Shown here piece by piece: positions 2,205 through 44,853 of a stretch of DNA of 44,853 bases. A program made the translations under genes and the position numbers. Source of the DNA: a virus; IMG/VR virus record IMGVR_UViG_2802429369_000001; one strand, 5' to 3'. The notes beneath the pieces are model-generated. The model ran no database searches. It saw only the letters and a list, made by a program, of their open reading frames with translations, and was not told where the DNA came from. Within the stretch, counting starts at the first letter, position 1; each line of letters opens with the position of its first letter.

Positions 2205-3278
2205 TTATGGGCGGCGGACGAAGCGGAATAGATGCGCATAATTGGGTGTAATGTCCCCAGCGTCATCTTTTACAAAAGGGTCTCCATCTCTATCAATGTC
2301 AACGATGACGTATTCACCCTCTTTGGATATATCGCCACCATGATCTACAGCCATCAGGACGTCCCCCGCACGCCAATTCTCCGGATCATACATATCTTCC
2401 GCCGGCACCACCTCGCCATGAATCCTCGGATACGCGGCGCGATATTCTGCTTGCAGTCGGTCAACCTCGGATTGCGCCTGCTCCAGAGCTAATAACGCGG
2501 CTTCCAGTTGGTCGGCTAGATGTTGTTGTGGCATGTGTTGTTCCTCGGTTGTGGTGCCTGTTGTGGTTTCCATTTTGGTGTCGATTTCTTGGCGTCGGCG
2601 GTAGTGGGTGATAGCGGTATTTGCATCGAATAAACCCCAGCAGAATGCGGTTCTCGTCTTGTGGCTACCCGTGTGAATGCCCTCCAGCGCCGTAACCCCA
2701 ATATTCTCCACGCCGTCCCGATATCGAACATCAATGCGCGTGCCTTTCTCAACTGGGCAGGTTCCTGTGTTTTCGATCCAGCCGTCGCCGTCTTGCGTGC
2801 CGCTCTCCTCTGATTTATCCCCACCCGCATTCGTCGCGCCCAGGATTTGGGATAGGGTGAGTTGGCGTGGGCTGCCCTCAAAGGAATTAGGTGAATCCCA
2901 ATGCGCCAATCCATCATCTTCATCCCACCCAAATAGATCCCAACAATCCGGCATTATGTCGCCTTTGTCATATTCGTTTTCATCTGCCCCAGCCGCCCTA
3001 AACGCCCGCGCCACCGCGTGATAGTCATCTTCGGTTAGGTCTTTGGTGGCGATGTGATCTCCGGGTTGAAGGGTGATGGAAGGCGTAATTTTTGAAACGC
3101 TGTTTAAATAGCAATATTGGTCAAAGCTCTTGCGCTGGTGGTGGCAAAACAAGGGTCTATCTGTACCATCGTCTTCAATTAGGATAATTTTTTCACCCGG
3201 ATCGAATCCTGCTGCGCCACCTTCTCCTGCCAAAAATTCATCGCCAACTTTGTAGCCTAGCTTCTCACATGGTGTCAT
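2205..3278 (-). CDS. Hypothetical acidic multi-domain protein (357 aa)
   Basis: Track ORF 2205..3326 starts at a GTG inside a hairpin. I trimmed it to ATG 3278, which has GGAG 9 nt upstream. It contains a DGWIENTGTCPV segment similar to one in ORF 36453..37100. Confidence 0.6.
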   Translation of the reverse strand: MTPCEKLGYKVGDEFLAGEGGAAGFDPGEKIILIEDDGTDRPLFCHHQRKSFDQYCYLNSVSKITPSITLQPGDHIATKDLTEDDYHAVARAFRAAGADENEYDKGDIMPDCWDLFGWDEDDGLAHWDSPNSFEGSPRQLTLSQILGATNAGGDKSEESGTQDGDGWIENTGTCPVEKGTRIDVRYRDGVENIGVTALEGIHTGSHKTRTAFCWGLFDANTAITHYRRRQEIDTKMETTTGTTTEEQHMPQQHLADQLEAALLALEQAQSEVDRLQAEYRAAYPRIHGEVVPAEDMYDPENWRAGDVLMAVDHGGDISKEGEYVIVDIDRDGDPFVKDDAGDITPNYAHLFRFVRRP

Positions 3279-3310
3279 GGTGCTGATCTCCTCTTCGTTA
3301 TGTGTACACC

Positions 3311-3352
3311 ACAAACAATAAACCACCCATGACAGGGTGGCTAATTGTAATT
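3311..3352 (-). repeat. Family-2 intergenic element, copy 1
   Basis: mRNA sense is AATTACAATTAG-CCACCC-tgtcat-GGGTGG-TTTATTGTTTGT. Confidence 0.6.
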
Positions 3353-8138: not shown

Positions 8139-8161
8139 AAAAAAGCGCCCATTTGGGCGCT
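8139..8161 (-). terminator. Intrinsic terminator of the replication operon
   Basis: GCGCCC-aaat-GGGCGC followed by TTTTTT. Confidence 0.75.
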
Positions 8162-13221: not shown

Positions 13222-13250
13222 TTGACATCGCAAAGTGTAGCCCCTATAGT
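13222..13250 (+). promoter_or_regulatory. Sigma70-type promoter of the plus-strand operon
   Basis: TTGACA (13222-13227), a 17-nt spacer, and TATAGT (13245-13250). It lies 44 nt before ATG 13294. Confidence 0.7.
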
Positions 13251-13263
13251 TTGTGGGCGTCAA
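13234..13263 (-). promoter_or_regulatory. Candidate divergent promoter for the HTH/replication operon, overlapping the plus-strand promoter
   Basis: On the minus strand: TTGACG (13258-13263), an 18-nt spacer, and TACACT (13234-13239). Confidence 0.4.
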
Positions 13264-34728: not shown

Positions 34729-35109
34729 TCAATTCCCCTCCGTATAACACCTAACATCCATCACCCACACCGGGCGACCGTTTTCAAGATACATTGGCCC
34801 CGCAGGCTCTGAAAGCACCTCAAAACGTAGCACACTACCTTGCCCACCGCCTTCGCGGATACGCCGCGCAATCGCTGCCATCGTGTCGTGACCGGATACC
34901 GCGCCCGTGGGTCGCTGCACCAGGGTTAGCAGTACGTCAATGCGCTGCAATAGCGGGTCGCTGTTGCCGCTACCGGGAAAGCGCATCATGACAAACGGGC
35001 CTTCGCTTGATTCGTCTGCATCTGTCCACCGGAAATACTTCACCGCATAACCCGGTATCAGGTCGTCAATATAGGCGCGCAGGTCGGTTAATATCGTGCG
35101 TGTCGTCAC
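34729..35109 (-). CDS. Tail completion/terminator-like protein (putative)
   Basis: 126 aa. The call rests on its position after the gp10-like gene. Confidence 0.45.
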   Translation of the reverse strand: MTTRTILTDLRAYIDDLIPGYAVKYFRWTDADESSEGPFVMMRFPGSGNSDPLLQRIDVLLTLVQRPTGAVSGHDTMAAIARRIREGGGQGSVLRFEVLSEPAGPMYLENGRPVWVMDVRCYTEGN

Positions 35110-35492
35110 TCGCTATACTCCTCGCGCAGAATTTGTGGCAGAAGCGGGATGGTGGCCTCGATGCCTTTTTCTAGGAACTTAGGTTCGCCACCCGGTGCCC
35201 AGTACGTGCCTCGGTTCTTCGGCCTGGGTTTCCCAGCTAGTTTGCCCGATGCTTCATGCACAGCAACGGCATAGCGCGCGCCGTAGCCCGTTTCACCTTT
35301 CCACCCGCTAGGCGTTTGCTCGATGCGCCTAAACTGGCTGTTAATCAGAAACGACGTATCCCGTGGTGTTAACGCGGCTGACTGAGTGCTGACTGAAAAC
35401 AGGATCTTAGTCACCGCCCGCTCACTATCACGCACACCAATACCGCGCAACGCCTCCTTGAACCGCTGGTTAATGTCGTCAAACGTACTCAC
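35106..35492 (-). CDS. HK97 gp10-like head-tail joining protein
   Basis: Contains LTPRDTSFLINSQ...YGARYAVAVHE...FLEKG, resembling the HK97 gp10 family. Confidence 0.6.
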   Translation of the reverse strand: MSTFDDINQRFKEALRGIGVRDSERAVTKILFSVSTQSAALTPRDTSFLINSQFRRIEQTPSGWKGETGYGARYAVAVHEASGKLAGKPRPKNRGTYWAPGGEPKFLEKGIEATIPLLPQILREEYSE

Positions 35493-35854
35493 GTCATCAC
35501 CTCAAAATCAGGCAATCCGCCCGGTTCCAGCTCGTCAATCGGCCAAAAGCGGATGGCGCGGATACGCTCGGCAGTAGCGGGCGCGGCGGTTAGGTCGGTG
35601 TGGTCGCCCAACTGAATGTACCACTCGCGCTCTGGCACTAGTGGCGAATCTAGCGCGGCTTCAAAGCGAAACGTCTGACGCGGCGTAAACTCGGTGTTGG
35701 TGTCATCACGCGCCACATCGCCGCCGCCTTCATAGCCAACGCGGGGAATAATGTAAGGCGCACCGCCAACGGGCTGCCCCCATTCATCGGTGCCACCGCT
35801 GGGCCAGACCGTTGCAGGGCCATGCTCATACGACCAGCTCGCTATGTTCGACAT
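35489..35854 (-). CDS. Head-tail adaptor (putative)
   Basis: 121 aa. The call rests on position. It is preceded by a motif-hairpin-T-run cassette. Confidence 0.45.
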   Translation of the reverse strand: MSNIASWSYEHGPATVWPSGGTDEWGQPVGGAPYIIPRVGYEGGGDVARDDTNTEFTPRQTFRFEAALDSPLVPEREWYIQLGDHTDLTAAPATAERIRAIRFWPIDELEPGGLPDFEVMT

Positions 35855-35882
35855 AAAAAAAGCCCCATAAAAGATATGGGGC
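35855..35882 (-). terminator. Hairpin plus T7 abutting ATG 35854
   Basis: GCCCCATA-tcttt-TATGGGGC followed by T7. Confidence 0.6.
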
Positions 35883-35884
35883 TT

Positions 35885-35893
35885 AGTATAGCA
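35885..35893 (-). promoter_or_regulatory. TGCTATACT motif
   Basis: Plus strand reads agtatagca. It is followed by a hairpin, T7 and ATG 35854. Confidence 0.4.
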
Positions 35894-35917
35894 TGGTGTG
35901 GCGAGGTGTGTTATGGG

Positions 35918-36184
35918 CTAGGCGGCTAACTCAACCTCATTAACCCGCTTGTAATACACCTTGCCCTTGCACAGCAAATAAACGGTCTCGATAATCAGCG
36001 CTAACCCGATCATCATACCTAGCTCCGGAATACCGCTCGCCACGCTGACGATGGTGCAAAACAGGTAGGCGAATCCGGCGGCATGGCTGCCCAGGTAGAA
36101 ACGATGCACGCCAAGACTGCCGATGAAGAAACAGAGCAAAACGGCAGCGGTTTTTGATTTGTGCGTTACGATGTTGTGGGTCAT
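35918..36184 (-). CDS. TM2-domain membrane protein (88 aa)
   Basis: LLCFFIGSLGVHRFYLG is a TM2-domain signature. Two TM segments are predicted. Confidence 0.7.
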   Translation of the reverse strand: MTHNIVTHKSKTAAVLLCFFIGSLGVHRFYLGSHAAGFAYLFCTIVSVASGIPELGMMIGLALIIETVYLLCKGKVYYKRVNEVELAA

Positions 36185-36456
36185 TGTGTTTTCTCCTTGC
36201 TATGAATGCGAATATCAGCAAATGGCTCTCCATTATTGGTGATGTTGATATCGTAGGTTCCTTCGTCGTCATCAATCCAAGTGAGATAGCCTGGGAACAC
36301 ACAATGATCGCCCCACCCAATCTGGTCATGTAGCTCCTGAAGATATCGGCCATGAACCAAGCCTTCGGCTAACTCCGCCATGCAGAGTTTAATTCGGTCT
36401 TTGGGTACGTTTTTGAAAACGTCCATTAAGGTTTCGATGCGGTATTCTTTGCTCAT
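36181..36456 (-). CDS. Hypothetical protein (91 aa)
   Basis: Coupled ORF in the accessory island. Confidence 0.55.
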   Translation of the reverse strand: MSKEYRIETLMDVFKNVPKDRIKLCMAELAEGLVHGRYLQELHDQIGWGDHCVFPGYLTWIDDDEGTYDINITNNGEPFADIRIHSKEKTQ

Positions 36457-37100
36457 TGTGTTTTCTCAGGCAATGGTAGTTCGCCGTTGGCTATGGCGTC
36501 GTGGATAATTTCTAACCCTGTTTTTCCGTTTAATGACCCCTTTATCGCTTTTCGGGCTGCCTCAACCCACTGCTCGCGAGGTGAGGGTAGTTGTCTAATA
36601 CCACCGGCAACAGCCCACTTGTAACCGTGATCCGTTGTTGCTGGGTCGCGATAAACAACACCTCCGTCGTCATGCGCGACCACTTCAACAGCCAGCCAGT
36701 CGTTGTCGTTTTTCCGTACCAAAATCTTTTCGCCCACAGGCGGCAACCCATCATGCGGCCCACTCCACTCCTTCGGCTCCTCACTGGCGGGCTGGGGGAG
36801 GATTGGTCGGTAGGCGATGATGTCGCCACTTAGGTTTTCATGCGTCCATCTGAGATGGCCTGCCAGCTCGGTATGAAAAATATCGCTATTTGGCGTGAAC
36901 CGCATGATATGCTCACACTTTTGATGCTTGGGCAAAGGACACTCGCCACCAGTCCACTCAATCCACCCATCGGCGTCGGCTTGGATGTAATCCCACCCTT
37001 TACCAAGGTTTGGATTGCGGCACGGAAGTCGCATTCCACCCGAATACCGCTCTTCAACCACCCGATGTTCTTTAGTTAGCCTATTCACTGCATAAATCAT
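36453..37100 (-). CDS. Hypothetical protein (215 aa)
   Basis: Coupled ORF. Its DGWIEWTGGECPLP segment resembles one in ORF 2205..3278. Confidence 0.55.
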   Translation of the reverse strand: MIYAVNRLTKEHRVVEERYSGGMRLPCRNPNLGKGWDYIQADADGWIEWTGGECPLPKHQKCEHIMRFTPNSDIFHTELAGHLRWTHENLSGDIIAYRPILPQPASEEPKEWSGPHDGLPPVGEKILVRKNDNDWLAVEVVAHDDGGVVYRDPATTDHGYKWAVAGGIRQLPSPREQWVEAARKAIKGSLNGKTGLEIIHDAIANGELPLPEKTQ

Positions 37101-37303
37101 GGTTGATTCTCCTCATTCCAAATAACACGAAACAGCGTCTGTTCCGCAAATGTAGCTCCGACATCCCCAGTGGTAATGTCGATCAAGCGGGTTTTATCAA
37201 TACCCGTGCGCTCGCTCAATGCAGGCCATGTGCTGCGTTGTTTTAGCGCTATCAGCAATGCGCGGGCGCGTGACTCGTCGTGATGGTGTTGGGCGTGGGT
37301 CAT
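37097..37303 (-). CDS. Hypothetical protein (68 aa)
   Basis: Coupled ORF. Confidence 0.5.
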   Translation of the reverse strand: MTHAQHHHDESRARALLIALKQRSTWPALSERTGIDKTRLIDITTGDVGATFAEQTLFRVIWNEENQP

Positions 37304-37443
37304 TCGTCAGCCTGCTGAGTGTCAGGCCCAGTCACGTTTACCACCACAGTAACGTAATGGCCGTCGACCCACATGGTAAATGCACGCTCATCGTGTCCAT
37401 CCGTGATCATTTGACGCGCTTTTTTCTCAATTTCTTCAAACAT
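37300..37443 (-). CDS. Hypothetical protein (47 aa)
   Basis: Not in the track. AAGGAGAG lies 6 nt before ATG 37443. Translation is MFEEIEKKARQMITDGHDERAFTMWVDGHYVTVVVNVTGPDTQQADE. ATGA overlap with the next gene. Confidence 0.5.
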   Translation of the reverse strand: MFEEIEKKARQMITDGHDERAFTMWVDGHYVTVVVNVTGPDTQQADE

Positions 37444-37465
37444 TTTCACTCTCCTTTTTTGGTGT

Positions 37466-37512
37466 CACCAAACAATAGCCCACCCCACCACCTACCCGCT
37501 AATGGTATTTTT
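37466..37512 (-). repeat. Family-2 intergenic element, copy 3 (centre is not a hairpin)
   Basis: mRNA sense is AAAAATACCATTAG-CGGGTAGGTGGTGGGGTGGGC-TATTGTTTGGTG. Confidence 0.55.
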
Positions 37513-37617
37513 CTATCGACTCACGCCACCCGATAGCAACCACCTATAAACGGCAACGCCCCGATGTTTGCCGGGGCGTCTAGTATGCGGGTGTCGCTTA
37601 ACAGCGCCGCACCCTTT

Positions 37618-37659
37618 GGTAGATAGGATCACCTCCTAGGCGGCGTGGCCGTATCTACC
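37618..37659 (-). other. Hairpin displaying an orphan Shine-Dalgarno-like sequence in its loop
   Basis: The stem is GGTAGATA/TATCTACC. The loop contains AGGAGGTGATCC (plus strand ggatcacctcct, 37626-37637), with no start codon at SD distance. Confidence 0.6.
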
Positions 37660-37662
37660 ACC

Positions 37663-37671
37663 AGTATAGCA
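37663..37671 (-). promoter_or_regulatory. TGCTATACT motif, just after terminator 37675-37701
   Basis: Plus strand reads agtatagca. Confidence 0.45.
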
Positions 37672-37674
37672 CCC

Positions 37675-37701
37675 AAAAAAAAGACCGCCAGAAAGGCGGC
37701 C
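37675..37701 (-). terminator. Intrinsic terminator
   Basis: GCCGCC-tttct-GGCGG(tc) followed by T8. Confidence 0.6.
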
Positions 37702-37753
37702 AATAGGATGAGCAACACACAACACAACAAGGAGTGGGTAGAGTATGGCAGCG

Positions 37754-37942
37754 TTAGGCCGTGGTGTCTAGTTTTTGCGTCACCTCGCCGAACTCAATAG
37801 TCATGCAGTTATCAGCCAGCCATGAAGCGGCTTTGCGGCAATCCATCCCAAGCATTACTGCTAGCTTGGCGACGCACAAGCAGGGCCAGAAATTCCAGCG
37901 GCGTTTAACTTTGATGTTTACCGATAGCGAGCAAATAGCCAT
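37754..37942 (-). CDS. Hypothetical Cys-rich protein (62 aa)
   Basis: Track ORF trimmed to ATG 37942, which lies 1 nt after the upstream stop. It is followed by a terminator. Confidence 0.45.
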   Translation of the reverse strand: MAICSLSVNIKVKRRWNFWPCLCVAKLAVMLGMDCRKAASWLADNCMTIEFGEVTQKLDTTA

Positions 37943-37943
37943 A

Positions 37944-38327
37944 TCAACACCTCGTTCCCTTAACCACCATAAACCCCGTCGAGCCACCAGGCTTGGCAGG
38001 CGTCAGCGGTACAGCGCAGCCGTACTTATCAACGACGCTAAGCGACCCTAGCAACTGGTCGTATAAGTCGCCTAGGTCGCTGTATTCGAACGACTGAGAC
38101 GCACCGGACGGCGCGGCTTGTGATTTAACACGACGACCACCGCCGGAAATAGCCAACAGCCCCACCAAGTAGTAATAAATCAGCGCTTGGTCGGTGGCGT
38201 CTACGCCGTTGGCGTCCAGGCAGTCTTGAATGCCTTGGGATTTTGCAACCACCAGCGACAGCAGTGGGGCGGGCATTGTGATGCCTAGCTCGCGTAGGTA
38301 GGCTGTGGCTTCCTCAGTCGTTATCAT
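37944..38327 (-). CDS. Head-tail connector-like protein (putative)
   Basis: 127 aa, downstream of the capsid gene. The call rests on position only. Confidence 0.4.
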   Translation of the reverse strand: MITTEEATAYLRELGITMPAPLLSLVVAKSQGIQDCLDANGVDATDQALIYYYLVGLLAISGGGRRVKSQAAPSGASQSFEYSDLGDLYDQLLGSLSVVDKYGCAVPLTPAKPGGSTGFMVVKGTRC

Positions 38328-38583
38328 CAGGCTCGGCCTCAGTGTCTAGGCTAGGCTGTTCCGGCTCTTGTTCCTGCCTAGGATGTCGTTTCTTGCGTGG
38401 GCGCTTTGGGGTAGCGACTTCTAGGGTTTTGCCTTCATCGCTGCTAACCTCAATCCACTTGCCCGGCCAGCCGTTAAAGTCGTTCGGCACCTGAAGTTGC
38501 GTGCCCACGGCTACCATGTCCTTGCCGTTACGAAATACGCCGGGGCGTGTGATTTGAATCGTTTTCATCAAAAAATGCTCCAT
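38314..38583 (-). CDS. Hypothetical protein with basic/acidic tail (89 aa)
   Basis: Its ATG abuts the T-run of a cassette, as at two other loci. Confidence 0.5.
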   Translation of the reverse strand: MEHFLMKTIQITRPGVFRNGKDMVAVGTQLQVPNDFNGWPGKWIEVSSDEGKTLEVATPKRPRKKRHPRQEQEPEQPSLDTEAEPDDND

Positions 38584-38612
38584 AAAAAAACGGGAACCCG
38601 TAGGCTCCCGTT
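38584..38612 (-). terminator. Intrinsic terminator after the major capsid gene
   Basis: AACGGGAGCC-tac-GGGTTCCCGTT followed by T7. Confidence 0.7.
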
Positions 38613-38621
38613 AGTTTAGCA
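38613..38621 (-). promoter_or_regulatory. TGCTAAACT motif
   Basis: Plus strand reads agtttagca. It is followed by a hairpin, T7 and ATG 38583. Confidence 0.4.
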
Positions 38622-38630
38622 TATTATGCC

Positions 38631-39692
38631 TTACGCTTCCGCTGCGTACAGCACGCCAGAGCGGCCCGCGCTGTCAGCTTTGATTTGCAGGCCAGCAGCC
38701 GTCCATACCAAGGAGTTCCAGTCTGCGTACGGTGTCAGGCGTTGCATGGGCGTTGTGGTCATACCCATGCCCACAACGGGCTGAATGTACTGACCAGACG
38801 CCGCCATCGCAATGAACTCGTTGCCATTCAGCGCGTTAGTGCCGTTGGTCTTGATGATATTCGCAACACCGGGCACGTTACGCAGTGACTCGATGAACGT
38901 CTGCCAGCCGTTCTCATTGGTACCACGGCGCAGCAGATTGAACCAAATGTCAGAGCTGACCATAAACGTGATGTCCATTTCCACGTTGTTGGCCGCGCCT
39001 TGCAGGACTTGCAGAGCATTGATAAAAACCTTCTCAATATCTTCATAAGTGGTGGTTGATGCGGTTAGGTCAACGTTCAGGCCACCTACACCAAGGTCAA
39101 GCGCCTGGGTGTTGGGGCTGTTCTTGATGCCGAACGACTCTTGGCCCTTGTACACGGTGCCTGGGCTACCGTTCAGGAAGTTATCAACCAACTGGCGACG
39201 CACGGCACGCACGGCGGCGGCTTGGTCGTCTACCAGAGCGTCAAAATCTTCCGAACGCATGGCTTCCAGCTCGCGCCATTCACGACCAACGGCGGCATCG
39301 TGGATCAGTACCAGCGCGCCGTCGTAGTCGTAAGTGACCTTATCCATCGGCTTACGATGCTGACCGGAAATAGACGACTGCGCTTCGGATGCGTCAGACA
39401 CGCGGCGGTATTCTGACACGATTTTGCCAATCGGCACCGAACGCGCCAACGGTAACAGCGCGTTCAGGATCACGCCGCCCTCGTCACCCGTCATTAGCTG
39501 CTTGGTCTGGCTGTCGAAGTCACGGTATACGTCTTGCGGAATACGCGCAGCCGCATTGACCTGCATGCCGTGAATATGGCCGAAGTGCGCCTCGTTGGTC
39601 TCAAACGCCTTGCGGCGTAGCTTCACTTCGTCAAACTGACTCTTCGCGTTGCGAGAGTTAGCGACAATTTGCTTATCAAGATAAAAAGCCAT
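38631..39692 (-). CDS. Major capsid protein
   Basis: 353 aa. It follows the scaffold and decoration-like genes and is followed by a strong terminator. It resembles the DUF2184-type capsid family as I recall it. Confidence 0.75.
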   Translation of the reverse strand: MAFYLDKQIVANSRNAKSQFDEVKLRRKAFETNEAHFGHIHGMQVNAAARIPQDVYRDFDSQTKQLMTGDEGGVILNALLPLARSVPIGKIVSEYRRVSDASEAQSSISGQHRKPMDKVTYDYDGALVLIHDAAVGREWRELEAMRSEDFDALVDDQAAAVRAVRRQLVDNFLNGSPGTVYKGQESFGIKNSPNTQALDLGVGGLNVDLTASTTTYEDIEKVFINALQVLQGAANNVEMDITFMVSSDIWFNLLRRGTNENGWQTFIESLRNVPGVANIIKTNGTNALNGNEFIAMAASGQYIQPVVGMGMTTTPMQRLTPYADWNSLVWTAAGLQIKADSAGRSGVLYAAEA

Positions 39693-39704
39693 TTGCTAGC
39701 TCCC

Positions 39705-40151
39705 TTATTTGAATTTAACGCGAACAGGCGTAGTGGCGGTAGTTGTCACGGATTCATCTGCATAACAGACAGCAACCTCAGGGGTAGCGGCGGCAGGGTC
39801 GAGCACGCGCAACAGGCCCGCTCCATTCGATACCAGAGGTGAATCGCGCAAAACCGTCTGTCCAGTGGCAACCAGCATACGGAACATTAGGCCGGACTCT
39901 GGAATGTACGCCTGGGCAGTATCGCCAGCGGCATAATCGGTGTCTAGGCCGCCGTTGCCGTCAAACGTAGCGGTTAGCTCTTTGGCGACGTACACAAAGC
40001 CGCCCGTGCCCGCCGTGCCATGCGGGACTAGCTCGCCAGCGGTTGACAATGCCAGCATGCCGGGGGTAAGGGTAGCGCCTGCCGGGGCTTCGTATTGCTC
40101 CGGCTGGTTATGATGCACGCTGCCCAAGAAAGTGCGATTTGCGGTAGTCAT
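39705..40151 (-). CDS. Head decoration/structural protein (putative, DUF2190-like position)
   Basis: 148 aa, between the scaffold and capsid genes. Confidence 0.4.
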   Translation of the reverse strand: MTTANRTFLGSVHHNQPEQYEAPAGATLTPGMLALSTAGELVPHGTAGTGGFVYVAKELTATFDGNGGLDTDYAAGDTAQAYIPESGLMFRMLVATGQTVLRDSPLVSNGAGLLRVLDPAAATPEVAVCYADESVTTTATTPVRVKFK

Positions 40152-41481: not shown

Positions 41482-41490
41482 AGTATAGCA
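41482..41490 (-). promoter_or_regulatory. TGCTATACT motif, 28 nt before the scaffold gene ATG in module B
   Basis: Plus strand reads agtatagca. The homologous TTCATACT in module A lies at 7736-7743. Confidence 0.5.
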
Positions 41491-44728: not shown

Positions 44729-44838
44729 ACCATCCCCTTAGGCCGCATATCCAGCCACTTCATCTGCAAATACCACTGAAACGCAGCCACCTCTTGGTAT
44801 TTGGCGGTTTCGTACCAGTGTTGGTGTGTTTCGGTCAT
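44725..44838 (-). CDS. Small ORF (37 aa) lying mostly in the terminal repeat and spanning the circular junction
   Basis: The same ATG occurs at 84 in the left repeat copy, where it overlaps the stop of the DUF551-like gene (ATGA). Translation is MTETHQHWYETAKYQEVAAFQWYLQMKWLDMRPKGMV. Confidence 0.4.
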   Translation of the reverse strand: MTETHQHWYETAKYQEVAAFQWYLQMKWLDMRPKGMV

Positions 44839-44853
44839 TGTGGTGGCTCCGGA
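44755..44853. repeat. Second copy of the 99-bp terminal repeat
   Basis: Identical to 1-99. Confidence 0.95.

Follow-up and report, generated by a model that had tools for sequence, protein, structure and literature searches.

Short composite cassettes in which a promoter is combined with a stem-loop, the PeSL (promoter-early stem-loop) cassettes, were described in T4-type myoviruses by Arbiol et al. 2010 (PMC2839356) and Comeau et al. 2014 (PMC4122927). Promoter and terminator activity have both been demonstrated for these cassettes, and one of their five subclasses carries the stem-loop downstream of the -10 (PMC2839356). Two further systems come close in one respect each: the middle and late genes of Thermus phage P23-45 are read from extended -10 promoters without a -35 (PMC5758890), and T7 class II terminators double as sigma-70 extended TGn promoters (bioRxiv 10.64898/2026.02.12.705533). 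Here we analyzed one stretch of viral DNA (IMG/VR record IMGVR_UViG_2802429369_000001; 44,853 nucleotides, hereafter the window) in which an 11-mer, a GC hairpin, a T-run and an ATG are joined at three junctions of the late region. The resulting cassette is a compact relative of the T4-type PeSL cassettes, not a new kind of element.

Genome context

The genome is siphovirus-like and 44.7 kb in length, and encodes a tape-measure protein and a major tail protein; no sheath gene was detected in the window ORFs. None of the ORFs scanned was recognized as a phage RNA polymerase, and no tRNAs were found in the window. Rfam searches gave no family at gathering thresholds for the whole window and chance-level matches only for positions 37280-37780. 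Pfam assigned no function to the genes flanking the cassettes, only DUF7448 and DUF7370 being matched. Megablast of positions 35000-40000 against GenBank phages returned no match; the nearest cultured relatives by capsid protein (55-57% identical) are Pseudomonas phage MR14 and Alteromonas phage XX1924, and a terminator scan of both genomes revealed no cassette-type site. The early region contains promoter-like sites near position 13.2 kb with canonical -35/-10 boxes, and many of the small early ORFs have no family match.

Anatomy of the three cassettes

The order ATGCTAWACTA, GC hairpin, T6-7 and ATG occurs in three copies, all on the minus strand of the window and located in the head, neck and tail module (late structural region); the exact 11-mer has three occurrences in the window. 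A sequence-only reading of this DNA had placed three such cassettes in front of structural genes, and all three were recovered, with the span of site 2 shifted by one base and without the extra A that it had put between ACTA and GCCC, which is absent at site 1. The features are as follows.

1764-1754, minus strand: cassette 1 motif ATGCTAAACTA, with the extended -10 TGCTAAACT at 1763-1755; invariant in relatives while the adjoining stem changes
1754-1734, minus strand: cassette 1 hairpin AGCCCTCA-aactc-TGAGGGCT (-13.1 kcal/mol, z -3.5)
1748-1746 (about), minus strand: cassette 1 predicted start site, 6-9 nt past the -10
1740-1736, minus strand: cassette 1 GAGGG, the sole Shine-Dalgarno-like sequence, in the 3' arm
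1734-1729, minus strand: cassette 1 T6, directly after the hairpin
1728-1726, minus strand: portal ATG, adjoining the T-run (ORF 325-1728, phrog_146; same start in 11 relatives)
38622-38612, minus strand: cassette 2 motif ATGCTAAACTA, with the extended -10 TGCTAAACT at 38621-38613; 9 nt past the capsid stop codon
38612-38589, minus strand: cassette 2 hairpin AACGGGAGCC-uacg-GGUUCCCGUU (-17.7 kcal/mol, z -5.1)
A38606 (about; 38607-38605), minus strand: cassette 2 predicted start site, 6-9 nt past the -10
38590-38584, minus strand: cassette 2 T7, directly after the hairpin
38583-38581, minus strand: cassette 2 first ATG, abutting the T-run, within ATGGAGCATTTTTTGATG (38583-38566)
38581-38578, minus strand: cassette 2 GGAG Shine-Dalgarno, supplied by ATGGAG, downstream of the T-run
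38568-38566, minus strand: cassette 2 second in-frame ATG (MKTIQITRPG), the likely start
18 bp upstream of the -10, minus strand: cassette 3 -35-like ATAACA
35894-35884, minus strand: cassette 3 motif ATGCTATACTA, with the extended -10 TGCTATACT at 35893-35885
35884-35860, minus strand: cassette 3 hairpin AAGCCCCATA-tcttt-TATGGGGCTT (-15.9 kcal/mol)
35878-35877 (about; 35878-35876), minus strand: cassette 3 predicted start site, 6-9 nt past the -10
35866-35863, minus strand: cassette 3 GGGG, the sole Shine-Dalgarno-like sequence, in the 3' arm
35861-35855, minus strand: cassette 3 T7, directly after the hairpin
35854-35852, minus strand: ATG of the phrog_797 gene (function unknown), upstream of the Neck1-like gene; GTG in some relatives

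With stems of 8-10 bp, loops of 4-5 nt and T6-7 directly after the hairpin, the three cassettes have the anatomy of intrinsic terminators, and their folding energies range from -13.1 to -17.7 kcal/mol (z -3.5 to -5.1 versus shuffles). In the motif, TGn directly precedes a TAnnnT hexamer with A-11 and T-7, as in extended -10 promoters. The hexamer of sites 1 and 2, TAAACT, matches TATAAT at 4 of 6 positions and is accompanied by no recognisable -35. Upstream regions of the cassettes are not AT-rich, and the discriminator is GC-rich (GCCCTC, ACGGGA), which could make melting costlier and the promoters weak or factor-dependent.

A start codon abutting the T-run had been claimed for all three sites and is found for the portal and phrog_797 genes, the latter being all that can be said of what had been called an adaptor gene. 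At site 2 the homologue N-termini (MKILITKPG, MLIEITRRG or MAKFRLTRP; relatives L003, L004 and L021) align with the second ATG, and the abutting ATG is probably not a start codon but part of the GGAG Shine-Dalgarno.

The motif elsewhere in the window

The 9-mer TGCTAWACT is present in six copies, all on the minus (late-gene) strand, all intergenic and all within the structural and lysis region, against an expectation of 0.56 for both strands together and a maximum of 4 in 300 Markov-1 simulations, so that the motif recurs beyond chance. The copies outside the cassettes, and a degraded cassette, are located as follows.

37701-37683, minus strand: terminator GGCCGCCtttctGGCGGTC-T8, followed by TGCTATACT at 37671-37663, which is the ordinary order; kept in L021, L109, L129 and L017
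24042-24022, minus strand: terminator AAAGCGCCctcgtGGCGCTTT, its T-run leading into TGCTATACT at 24019-24011; upstream of the holin and endolysin genes
41482-41490, minus strand: putative stand-alone TGCTATACT promoter with no adjoining hairpin, before the phrog_760, head-decoration and capsid genes; kept in L003, L007, L017 and L021
2150-2215, minus strand: degraded cassette upstream of the 123-aa DUF7448 gene, its promoter half cccataacgccacagcgcactaa intact

As these three copies follow terminators or stand alone, the motif is an element in its own right. Five of the seven strong terminators on the minus strand have a motif partner, located before the hairpin in three and after it in two. 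The motif is best read as a predicted extended -10 promoter with little or no -35, an identification that had been proposed for TGnTAWACT and that agrees with its enrichment, its strand-specific and intergenic placement and its occurrence after terminators as well. Part of the identity of the 11-mer within the window could stem from recent recombination instead of selection.

In the degraded cassette a decayed -10, ATACCAA, precedes the hairpin AAGCCGC/GCGGCTT, which has no more than three T behind it, then AGGAGAG and ATG; the cassette is 93-96% identical to positions -62 to -35 of the L134 and L136 portal cassettes. The site at 37556-37589 (minus strand), which had been suggested as a looser fourth copy, was rejected: its box, CATACT, is without TG and is not conserved (CAACACT and GTACCA in relatives), its T-run is interrupted and no start codon follows. 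Its hairpin, GACGCCCCGG/CCGGGGCGT, is part of a non-coding stretch that is conserved and structured.

Conservation and stem replacement in relatives

Homologues of the portal and adaptor genes, not the motif, were used to sample relatives, and every close relative (at least 79% amino acid identity) carries the cassette at the portal and adaptor junctions. The MAFFT alignment of the cassettes was out of register for pair counting, and stems were therefore folded one by one. Stable hairpins were obtained for 9 of the 10 cassettes folded (window plus relatives), the L051 variant being weak (-6.5 kcal/mol). Four unrelated stems are found at the portal and adaptor junctions (GCCCTCA/TGAGGGC, GCCCCTAT/ATAGGGGC, AGCCCCATA/TATGGGGCT and AAGCCCCAAGA/TCTTCGGGGCTT), and between the GCCCTCA and GCCCCTAT stems the paired bases differ on both sides. 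These comparisons indicate that the predicted terminator pairing persists at orthologous junctions through replacement of entire stems, in support of the earlier assignment of hairpin and T-run as an intrinsic terminator.

The -10 box of the relatives is TAAACT, TATACT or TACAAT, with TG, A-11 and T-7 invariant, and the extended -10 sequences TGCTACAAT and TGCTAAAAT are used as well. Throughout the 13 distinct clade cassettes the spacing from -10 to stem is zero, with the first paired base at -6. Promoter halves and stems assort independently: L141 combines the promoter half of L134 with the stem of L132, and the promoter half of cassette 3, from GCCGCC..CATAACACAC onward, recurs behind three different upstream genes. 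Homology breakpoints relative to the relatives lie at -10, -36 or -62 from the start codon, which are the cassette edges. At the post-capsid junction of L017, L021 and L003, a terminator is followed by TGCTAAAAT or TGCTACAAT and then by a Shine-Dalgarno, both elements being retained in reversed order.

Occurrence in other phages and in bacteria

The pattern ATGCTAWACTA-N16-28-T6ATG was searched in IMG/VR and retrieved 52 stretches representing 36 distinct sequences, 29 of which contain a hairpin of -8 kcal/mol or stronger; a composition-matched scrambled motif retrieved 6 stretches. Recurrence of the cassette, which the earlier reading had proposed to look for in related phages, is observed among relatives and in IMG/VR. 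Of the first 120 matches listed for bacterial genomes, only 12 have a hairpin, and the form with a hairpin is enriched in phages. Pairing begins at -6 in 26 of the 29 hairpin cassettes from IMG/VR; in this set the 5' arms end between -1 and +5, and 15 of the 29 have a Shine-Dalgarno-like sequence in the 3' arm. In several unrelated IMG/VR phage contigs that carry the cassette, TTGACA precedes the motif by 17 bp, which also favors the extended -10 assignment. Cultured carriers are Acinetobacter phage XC1, with minus-strand sites at about 12407, 11218 and 3921, and Synechococcus (cyano)phage ACG-2014a (T4-like), in which the cassette precedes purC. Outside the clade, the pattern ATAACACA-N12-16-TGCTAWACT gave mostly chance matches and was used as a no-hairpin control.

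Proposed mechanism

We consider it probable, on the geometry of the elements, that the cassette is a composite punctuation of the late transcription unit, which terminates incoming transcription and restarts it within the 5' arm. The phage would rely on host RNA polymerase for the late unit. Incoming RNA from upstream would fold the 8-10 bp GC hairpin and be released at the T-run, while the DNA immediately 5' of the hairpin would act as an extended -10 promoter (TGnTAWACT) with a weak or absent -35. Initiation 6-9 nt past the hexamer would fall on the final few bases of the 5' arm or within the loop, a placement that follows from the first paired base lying at -6 and that agrees with the start about 7 nt past the hexamer proposed earlier. 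In computed folds the hairpin forms in read-through RNAs but not in those that start 6-9 nt past the -10, as had been anticipated; RNA born at the cassette, being without the 5' arm, would form no terminator and would continue into the next gene.

At sites 1 and 3 the 3' arm (GAGGG, GGGG) would serve as ribosome-binding site and the T-run as a 7-8 nt spacer to the start, so that read-through RNA would hide the ribosome-binding site and RNA initiated at the cassette would expose it. The proposed gating of translation by the 3' arm fits these two sites and fails at site 2, where Shine-Dalgarno and likely start are downstream of the T-run and where only the termination and restart steps apply. 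As cassettes share about 10-60 nt, they may also be crossover points for module exchange between related phages. We infer promoter activity, termination efficiency, start-site position and translational effect from sequence, and literature searches on start sites mapped to terminator stems or on Acinetobacter phage transcript maps returned nothing usable. Against the model, the cassette order leaves the promoter unshielded from upstream polymerases, unlike the terminator-then-promoter order.

If the model is true, about 40 nt hold four signals (terminator, promoter, ribosome-binding site and spacer to the start codon), and upstream RNA is ended with its ribosome-binding site masked while cassette-born RNA is translated. 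It would explain how small phages without antitermination factors dose portal, capsid and neck/tail blocks independently, and why inserted ORFan modules are tolerated between essential structural genes. With its mechanism as predicted, the cassette would be a ready-made, compact insulator part for synthetic biology.

Alternative explanations

The motif may instead mark late promoters that need a phage factor (an activator or a remodeller of sigma region 4), making it a timing signal with terminate-restart otherwise the same; we regard this as unlikely. Confinement of all six motif copies to the structural and lysis region, the canonical -35/-10 sites of the early region and the P23-45 precedent speak for it, but no candidate factor was identified among the window ORFs, the motif alone is a good extended -10, and other phages carry it with a TTGACA -35.

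That the cassettes are terminators only, with ATGCTAWACTA a recombination scar, a linker or a phage-regulator site and the downstream genes expressed by read-through, seems to us rather unlikely. The weak -10 of sites 1 and 2, with no -35 and a GC-rich discriminator, would suit this explanation, and as breakpoints cluster at cassette edges, recombination could maintain the shared sequence. However, the same 9-mer is found behind terminators and ahead of the capsid operon, where a promoter would classically be expected, variation in the box always retains TG, A-11 and T-7, and TTGACA is found at 17 bp in unrelated cassette contigs. Without restart, moreover, hairpins of -13 to -16 kcal/mol hiding the ribosome-binding sites of the portal and neck genes would keep expression of these genes low, and the zero stem spacing in the 13 distinct clade cassettes would be left unexplained.

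A further alternative, which we hold to be doubtful, is that the flush overlap serves to terminate and reinitiate in place: the host polymerase, its RNA released at the T-run, would stay on the DNA ~25 bp from the -10, slide back and restart. Post-termination sliding and restart of polymerase are possible according to single-molecule work (PMC6978380, PMC10372574). If slide-back is true, polymerase flux would be kept, each structural segment would get a fresh 5' end with its ribosome-binding site unmasked, and translation would depend on the birthplace of the RNA; it might be a general phage strategy, given that viral contigs are enriched in the architecture and bacterial genomes seldom have it.

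A role at the RNA level only is very improbable. In that case the hairpin would stabilise 3' ends or mark a processing boundary and RNase E-type cleavage would occur in the AU-rich AUGCUAAACUA, giving segmental mRNA stability (capsid high, downstream lower) without new initiation, with RNase III processing as a variant. A stable stem adjoined by an AU-rich single-stranded stretch and the location of site 2 immediately behind the major capsid gene, a place at which differential expression would be expected, are consistent with it. RNase III requires about two helical turns (~20 bp or more) of largely double-stranded RNA, and the stems of 8-10 bp are too short, which also disposes of the earlier comparison with RNase III processing hairpins. 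Also against the RNA-level explanation, the motif occurs downstream of terminators and without any hairpin, its variable positions obey promoter rules and not a cleavage consensus, and unrelated carriers have -35 boxes.

A leader attenuator of the cassette's own promoter, in which transcripts start upstream of the hairpin and terminate early unless prevented, like the 5'UTR-resident terminators reported for Pseudomonas phages, would agree with promoter-proximal downstream terminators being common in phage transcriptomes (PMC10914365), but we reject it as scarcely probable, since pairing begins at -6 throughout the clade and in 26 of the 29 IMG/VR cassettes and a sigma-70 start site cannot precede such a stem.

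Comparison with known systems

The likeness to PeSL cassettes noted in the sequence-only reading is apt. Both are short composites of a host-type promoter and a stem-loop terminator that end in a Shine-Dalgarno and start codon, both are present in several copies per genome and tied to insertions, deletions and replacements between close relatives, and both leave degraded copies near indels (here 2150-2215). The subclass with the stem-loop downstream of the -10 (PMC2839356) is the nearest counterpart, the stem here being flush with the -10, and the present architecture also occurs in a T4-like cyanophage. The differences are in setting and in build. The host phage is siphovirus-like and of 44.7 kb, and the cassettes are in its late structural region, not in the early hyperplastic regions of a T4-like myovirus. 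PeSL promoters have -35/-10 boxes and AT-rich upstream sequence, whereas here the -10 is extended, the -35 is weak or absent and there is no AT-rich element. In every case the stem adjoins the -10 without a gap and extends across the predicted start site, a full T-run doubles as the Shine-Dalgarno-to-start spacer, and the Shine-Dalgarno is inside the 3' arm at two of three sites. Mini-circle formation and both activities have been demonstrated for PeSL cassettes, and the activities of the present ones are predicted. PeSL-type cassettes, previously described only in early regions of T4-like myoviruses, are thereby extended to late operons of an unrelated, siphovirus-like lineage and to Obolenskvirus.

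Ordinary terminator-then-promoter punctuation consists of the same pair of elements and is predicted to lead likewise to stop, restart and independent dosage of gene blocks; it occurs here at 37701-37663, at 24042-24011 and at the post-capsid junction of relatives. In the cassette, by contrast, the order is inverted, the elements overlap, the promoter is unshielded and the restart RNA would be a truncated version of the terminator.

As in P23-45, the host RNA polymerase is predicted to transcribe late genes from -10 promoters that have the TG extension and lack a -35. The RNA polymerase-binding proteins gp39 and gp76 enforce the switch in P23-45 and no such protein was identified here; P23-45, unlike the present cassettes, is without a described terminator overlap (PMC5758890). 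T7 class II terminators, like the cassettes with their predicted activities, combine a terminator and an extended -10 promoter in one short, context-dependent sequence. They are, however, hairpin-independent and act on T7 RNA polymerase, and their dual activity was found by chance in constructs, whereas the cassette is a conserved genomic architecture.

Three minus-strand cassettes in the structural gene series

A single construction, ATGCTAWACTA followed by a hairpin, a T-run and a start codon (the cassette), had been read from the sequence at three junctions of the window, and the minus-strand sequence at these sites was as stated:

1764-1754, minus strand: site 1, 11-mer ATGCTAAACTA
1754-1734, minus strand: site 1, hairpin AGCCCTCA-aactc-TGAGGGCT, then T6 and ATG 1728-1726
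38622-38612, minus strand: site 2, 11-mer ATGCTAAACTA
38612-38589, minus strand: site 2, hairpin AACGGGAGCC-tacg-GGTTCCCGTT, then T7 and ATG 38583-38581
35894-35884, minus strand: site 3, 11-mer ATGCTATACTA
35884-35860, minus strand: site 3, hairpin AAGCCCCATA-tcttt-TATGGGGCTT, then T7 and ATG 35854-35852

Folding energies were -13.1 (site 1), -17.7 (site 2) and -15.9 kcal/mol (site 3), and no more than 1 of 200 shuffles reached the same stability. The window contains three copies of the exact 11-mer and six of the 9-mer TGCTAWACT, the latter all on the minus strand, versus 0.56 expected for both strands combined.

Bases 1-86 of the window are identical to bases 44755-44840, which indicates a complete genome of ~44.75 kb, circularly closed (or terminally redundant); genes that come after the portal gene cross the junction of the ends. 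Gene order along the minus strand was taken from PHROG matches:

4652-3387, minus strand: large terminase, then two ORFs of unknown function, cassette 1 and the portal gene
after the portal gene, minus strand: head-morphogenesis protein, small ORFs, phrog_760 gene, head-decoration-like protein
39692-38631, minus strand: major capsid protein, then cassette 2
after cassette 2: three small ORFs, a non-coding stretch, four small ORFs, cassette 3
after cassette 3: phrog_797 ("adaptor") gene, Neck1-like protein, major tail protein, tape measure, tail fibre, holin, endolysin

The primase and helicases are encoded outside this series. The ORFs scanned in the window yielded no RNA polymerase, so phage transcription should rely on the host enzyme. 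The nearest cultured phages are distant (capsid 55-57% amino acid identity to Pseudomonas phage MR14 and Alteromonas phage XX1924). A paralogous gene pair (2205-3326 and 36453-37100, minus strand), both members matching phrog_9174 and phrog_26870 and neither matching Pfam, sits in the small-ORF blocks just 5' of a cassette, the first in the terminase-portal interval, the second between head and neck genes; these genes may be inserted accessory or selfish modules.

The motif as a putative late promoter

The motif is built like an extended -10 promoter (TGn plus TAnnnT). An upstream -35 match is absent at sites 1 and 2 and weak at site 3 (ATAACA, 18 bp spacing). The remaining three TGCTATACT copies in the window have no hairpin after them, which argues that the motif is an independent element. 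Two of them, at 37671 and 24019, lie just 3' of strong terminators (37701-37683 and 24042-24022), in the textbook order of terminator then promoter, and the third, at 41490, is solitary ahead of the capsid operon. Of the seven strong intergenic terminators on the minus strand, five are paired with the motif (before the hairpin in three, after it in two). Since all six copies fall within the structural and lysis region, the motif looks like a late promoter class independent of a -35 element, a strategy with a precedent in Thermus phage P23-45 (PMC5758890). GC-rich discriminators and TAAACT boxes may make two of the cassette promoters weak. Where the replication genes diverge, promoter-like sites of canonical form lie back to back:

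13222-13263, plus strand: TTGACA-17-TATAGT
13222-13263, minus strand: TTGACG-18-TACACT

These are probably early promoters, in contrast to the -35-less late motif.

A looser fourth copy proposed at 37556-37589 was not upheld: its -10-like box lacks the TG and is not conserved, and its hairpin is part of a conserved, structured non-coding region (37420-37660, minus strand). That region lies inside the ORF-free stretch 37303-37754, just 3' of the putative promoter at 37671, and its conservation exceeds that of the flanking genes in four compared sequences (L021, L109, L129 and L017). In its first hairpin (GGTAGATA...TATCTACC) pairs are changed on both sides, and the loop holds AGGAGGTGATC, complementary over 11 nt to the 3' tail of 16S rRNA; no start codon lies where a Shine-Dalgarno sequence would require one. 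Two more conserved hairpins come after this first one. Rfam returned no family match for 37420-37660, a region that may encode a small RNA of the phage or act as a DNA site.

Predicted start sites and ribosome-binding sites

If the final base of the hexamer is numbered T-7, pairing in the window cassettes begins at -6 and the 5' arm reaches +2 to +4. A start 6-9 nt past the hexamer is predicted at ~1748-1746 (site 1), 38607-38605 (site 2) and 35878-35876 (site 3). In computed folds, read-through RNAs form the full hairpin, and RNAs begun at the predicted starts lose the terminator and retain no more than 2-4 weak pairs; geometry and folding thus support a predicted start within the 5' arm, as first suggested. 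The 3' arm of sites 1 and 3 contains their sole Shine-Dalgarno-like sequence (GAGGG, GGGG), spaced 7-8 nt from the ATG, so that this sequence is predicted to be masked by pairing in read-through RNA and free in cassette-initiated RNA. The proposed gating of translation by the 3' arm does not extend to site 2, where the abutting ATG is part of TATGGAG and the GGAG Shine-Dalgarno sequence lies 3' of the T-run. Homologue N-termini at this site align with a second in-frame ATG (38568-38566), which is probably the start codon in place of the abutting 38583-38581. After the primase gene, a strong terminator (AGCGCCCaaatGGGCGCT-T6; 8144-8161, minus strand), whose stem overlaps the stop codon, is followed by an ATG that opens no ORF (ATGCCTAG); a T-run plus ATG is therefore no evidence by itself of a start codon.

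Orthologous junctions in relatives

Orthologous junctions were fetched from IMG/VR by portal and phrog_797 homologues, blind to the motif. In every close relative (79-100% amino acid identity) both junctions contain the cassette (11 portal and 9 adaptor loci); with window site 2 this gives 13 distinct cassette sequences. The -10 box is TAAACT, TATACT or TACAAT, with TG, A-11 and T-7 invariant; the T-run is T6, T7, T5AA or T5ATT, and the start codon ATG or GTG. The stem is replaced wholesale between relatives, four stems being present at the portal and adaptor junctions (GCCCTCA/TGAGGGC, GCCCCTAT/ATAGGGGC, AGCCCCATA/TATGGGGCT and AAGCCCCAAGA/TCTTCGGGGCTT). Among the ten cassettes folded (window and relatives), nine hairpins are stable and all ten stems start on the first base past the hexamer; the L051 hairpin is weak (-6.5 kcal/mol, 16 of 200 shuffles folding as well).

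The cassette is absent in distant relatives (52-55% amino acid identity): L128 has the terminator first and the promoter second, and L127 has TGTTATAAT, then a short stem overlapping the Shine-Dalgarno sequence, without a T-run. The post-capsid junction of L017, L021 and L003 keeps both elements in reversed order (terminator, TGCTAAAAT or TGCTACAAT, Shine-Dalgarno sequence, ATG). Together, the relatives' junctions argue that terminator and promoter are both under selection and that their flush overlap is a maintained architecture. Two parts of the sequence-only reading gain support: the hairpin and T-run as an intrinsic terminator, from folding against shuffles and stem replacement, and TGnTAWACT as an extended -10, from its strand-specific excess, the copies in promoter position and the invariant TG, A-11 and T-7.

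Pairwise comparison of relatives over the 1.5 kb preceding the portal and adaptor genes placed homology breakpoints at -10/-11 (after the stem), -36/-38 (first base of the 11-mer) and -62/-65 (first base of the promoter half). At least three different upstream genes precede the promoter half GCCGCC..CATAACAC... at the adaptor junction; the portal cassettes of L131, L134, L136 and L141 are fused to a half of this type, and L141 combines the L134 promoter half with the L132 stem. A further copy is degraded:

2215-2150, minus strand: degraded cassette upstream of the DUF7448 gene, which separates it from cassette 1

Its promoter half is intact (93-96% identical to the L134 and L136 portal cassettes), its -10 has decayed to ATACCAA, its stem is shorter and only three T remain. 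The arrangement suggests that the DUF7448 gene and a fresh cassette arrived in one insertion ahead of the portal gene.

Occurrence in other phages

IMG/VR was surveyed with ATGCTAWACTA-N16-28-TTTTTTATG, a pattern seeded from one strong version of the motif and requiring no hairpin. It matched 52 stretches (36 distinct sequences), and 29 of the 36 fold into a hairpin at or below -8 kcal/mol. Scrambling the motif at constant composition left only 6 matching stretches, with a hairpin in two distinct sequences, not abutting the motif, and chance matches to ...TGCTAWACT outside the clade of close relatives have no hairpin after them. In bacterial and archaeal genomes the pattern was mostly, among the matches listed, an ordinary promoter with a Shine-Dalgarno leader, and 12 of the first 120 matches listed had a hairpin. 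Pairing begins at -6 in 26 of the 29 viral hairpin cassettes, and their 5' arms end at -1 to +5; 15 of the 29 have a Shine-Dalgarno-like sequence in the 3' arm and 7 have one in the 5' arm. The promoter reading gains support from several matching contigs in which TTGACA or TTGGCT stands exactly 17 bp 5' of the hexamer.

Relatives of Acinetobacter Obolenskvirus phages and of T4-like cyanophages are among the contigs that carry the architecture. The cultured Obolenskvirus Acinetobacter phage XC1 (OQ547903.1) has three such sites in its structural region, one with TGCTAAAAT and one with a GTG start:

~12407, 11218 and 3921, minus strand of XC1: -10, flush hairpin, T-run, start codon

Synechococcus phage ACG-2014a (KJ019116.1) carries TGATATAATA-CGAGGGT-taaac-ACCCTCT-T7-ATG at 400-440, the hairpin being flush and the ATG the annotated purC start. 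In this T4-like cyanophage the upstream gene's stop is the TGA of TGATATAAT, and homology with metagenomic contig L032 (5520) starts exactly at cassette base 1.

Interpretation and comparison with known elements

The comparisons largely support a cassette made of a terminator and a putative extended -10 promoter, with a start site that would lie inside the arm. Polymerase recycling after intrinsic termination has a basis in earlier single-molecule work (PMC6978380, PMC10372574); a cassette at which polymerase, once released at the T-run, restarts from the overlapping promoter is an improbable reading. Dependence of the cassette promoters on a phage-encoded factor is a low-probability reading that fits everything observed. 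If the hairpins merely terminated and the motif had no promoter role, the independent copies in promoter position, the box variation obeying promoter rules and the zero spacing between -10 and stem would be unexplained. RNA processing alone is a weak explanation, and the RNase III parallel once drawn for the hairpins was wrong, the 8-10 bp stems being unsuitable. A leader attenuator is ruled out by geometry (first paired base -6).

The promoter-early stem-loop cassettes (PeSLs) of T4-type phages, to which the sequence-only reading likened the cassettes, are composites of a sigma-70 promoter and a stem-loop ending in a Shine-Dalgarno sequence and ATG, with promoter and terminator activity demonstrated in reporters (PMC2839356); intact and "half" elements occur at indel boundaries (PMC4122927). 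The likeness holds for the principle, which the cassettes appear to share, and for the recombination signature, the window and its relatives showing the same pattern of intact and degraded copies. It fails for two defining features that the cassettes lack, the canonical -35 with AT-rich upstream region and the setting in hyperplastic early regions of T4-like myoviruses. Three features are peculiar to the cassettes: the strictly flush position of the stem against the -10, the use of a full T-run as Shine-Dalgarno spacer, and a location between essential late genes. These differences set the cassettes apart as a variant of PeSLs and not as members of them.
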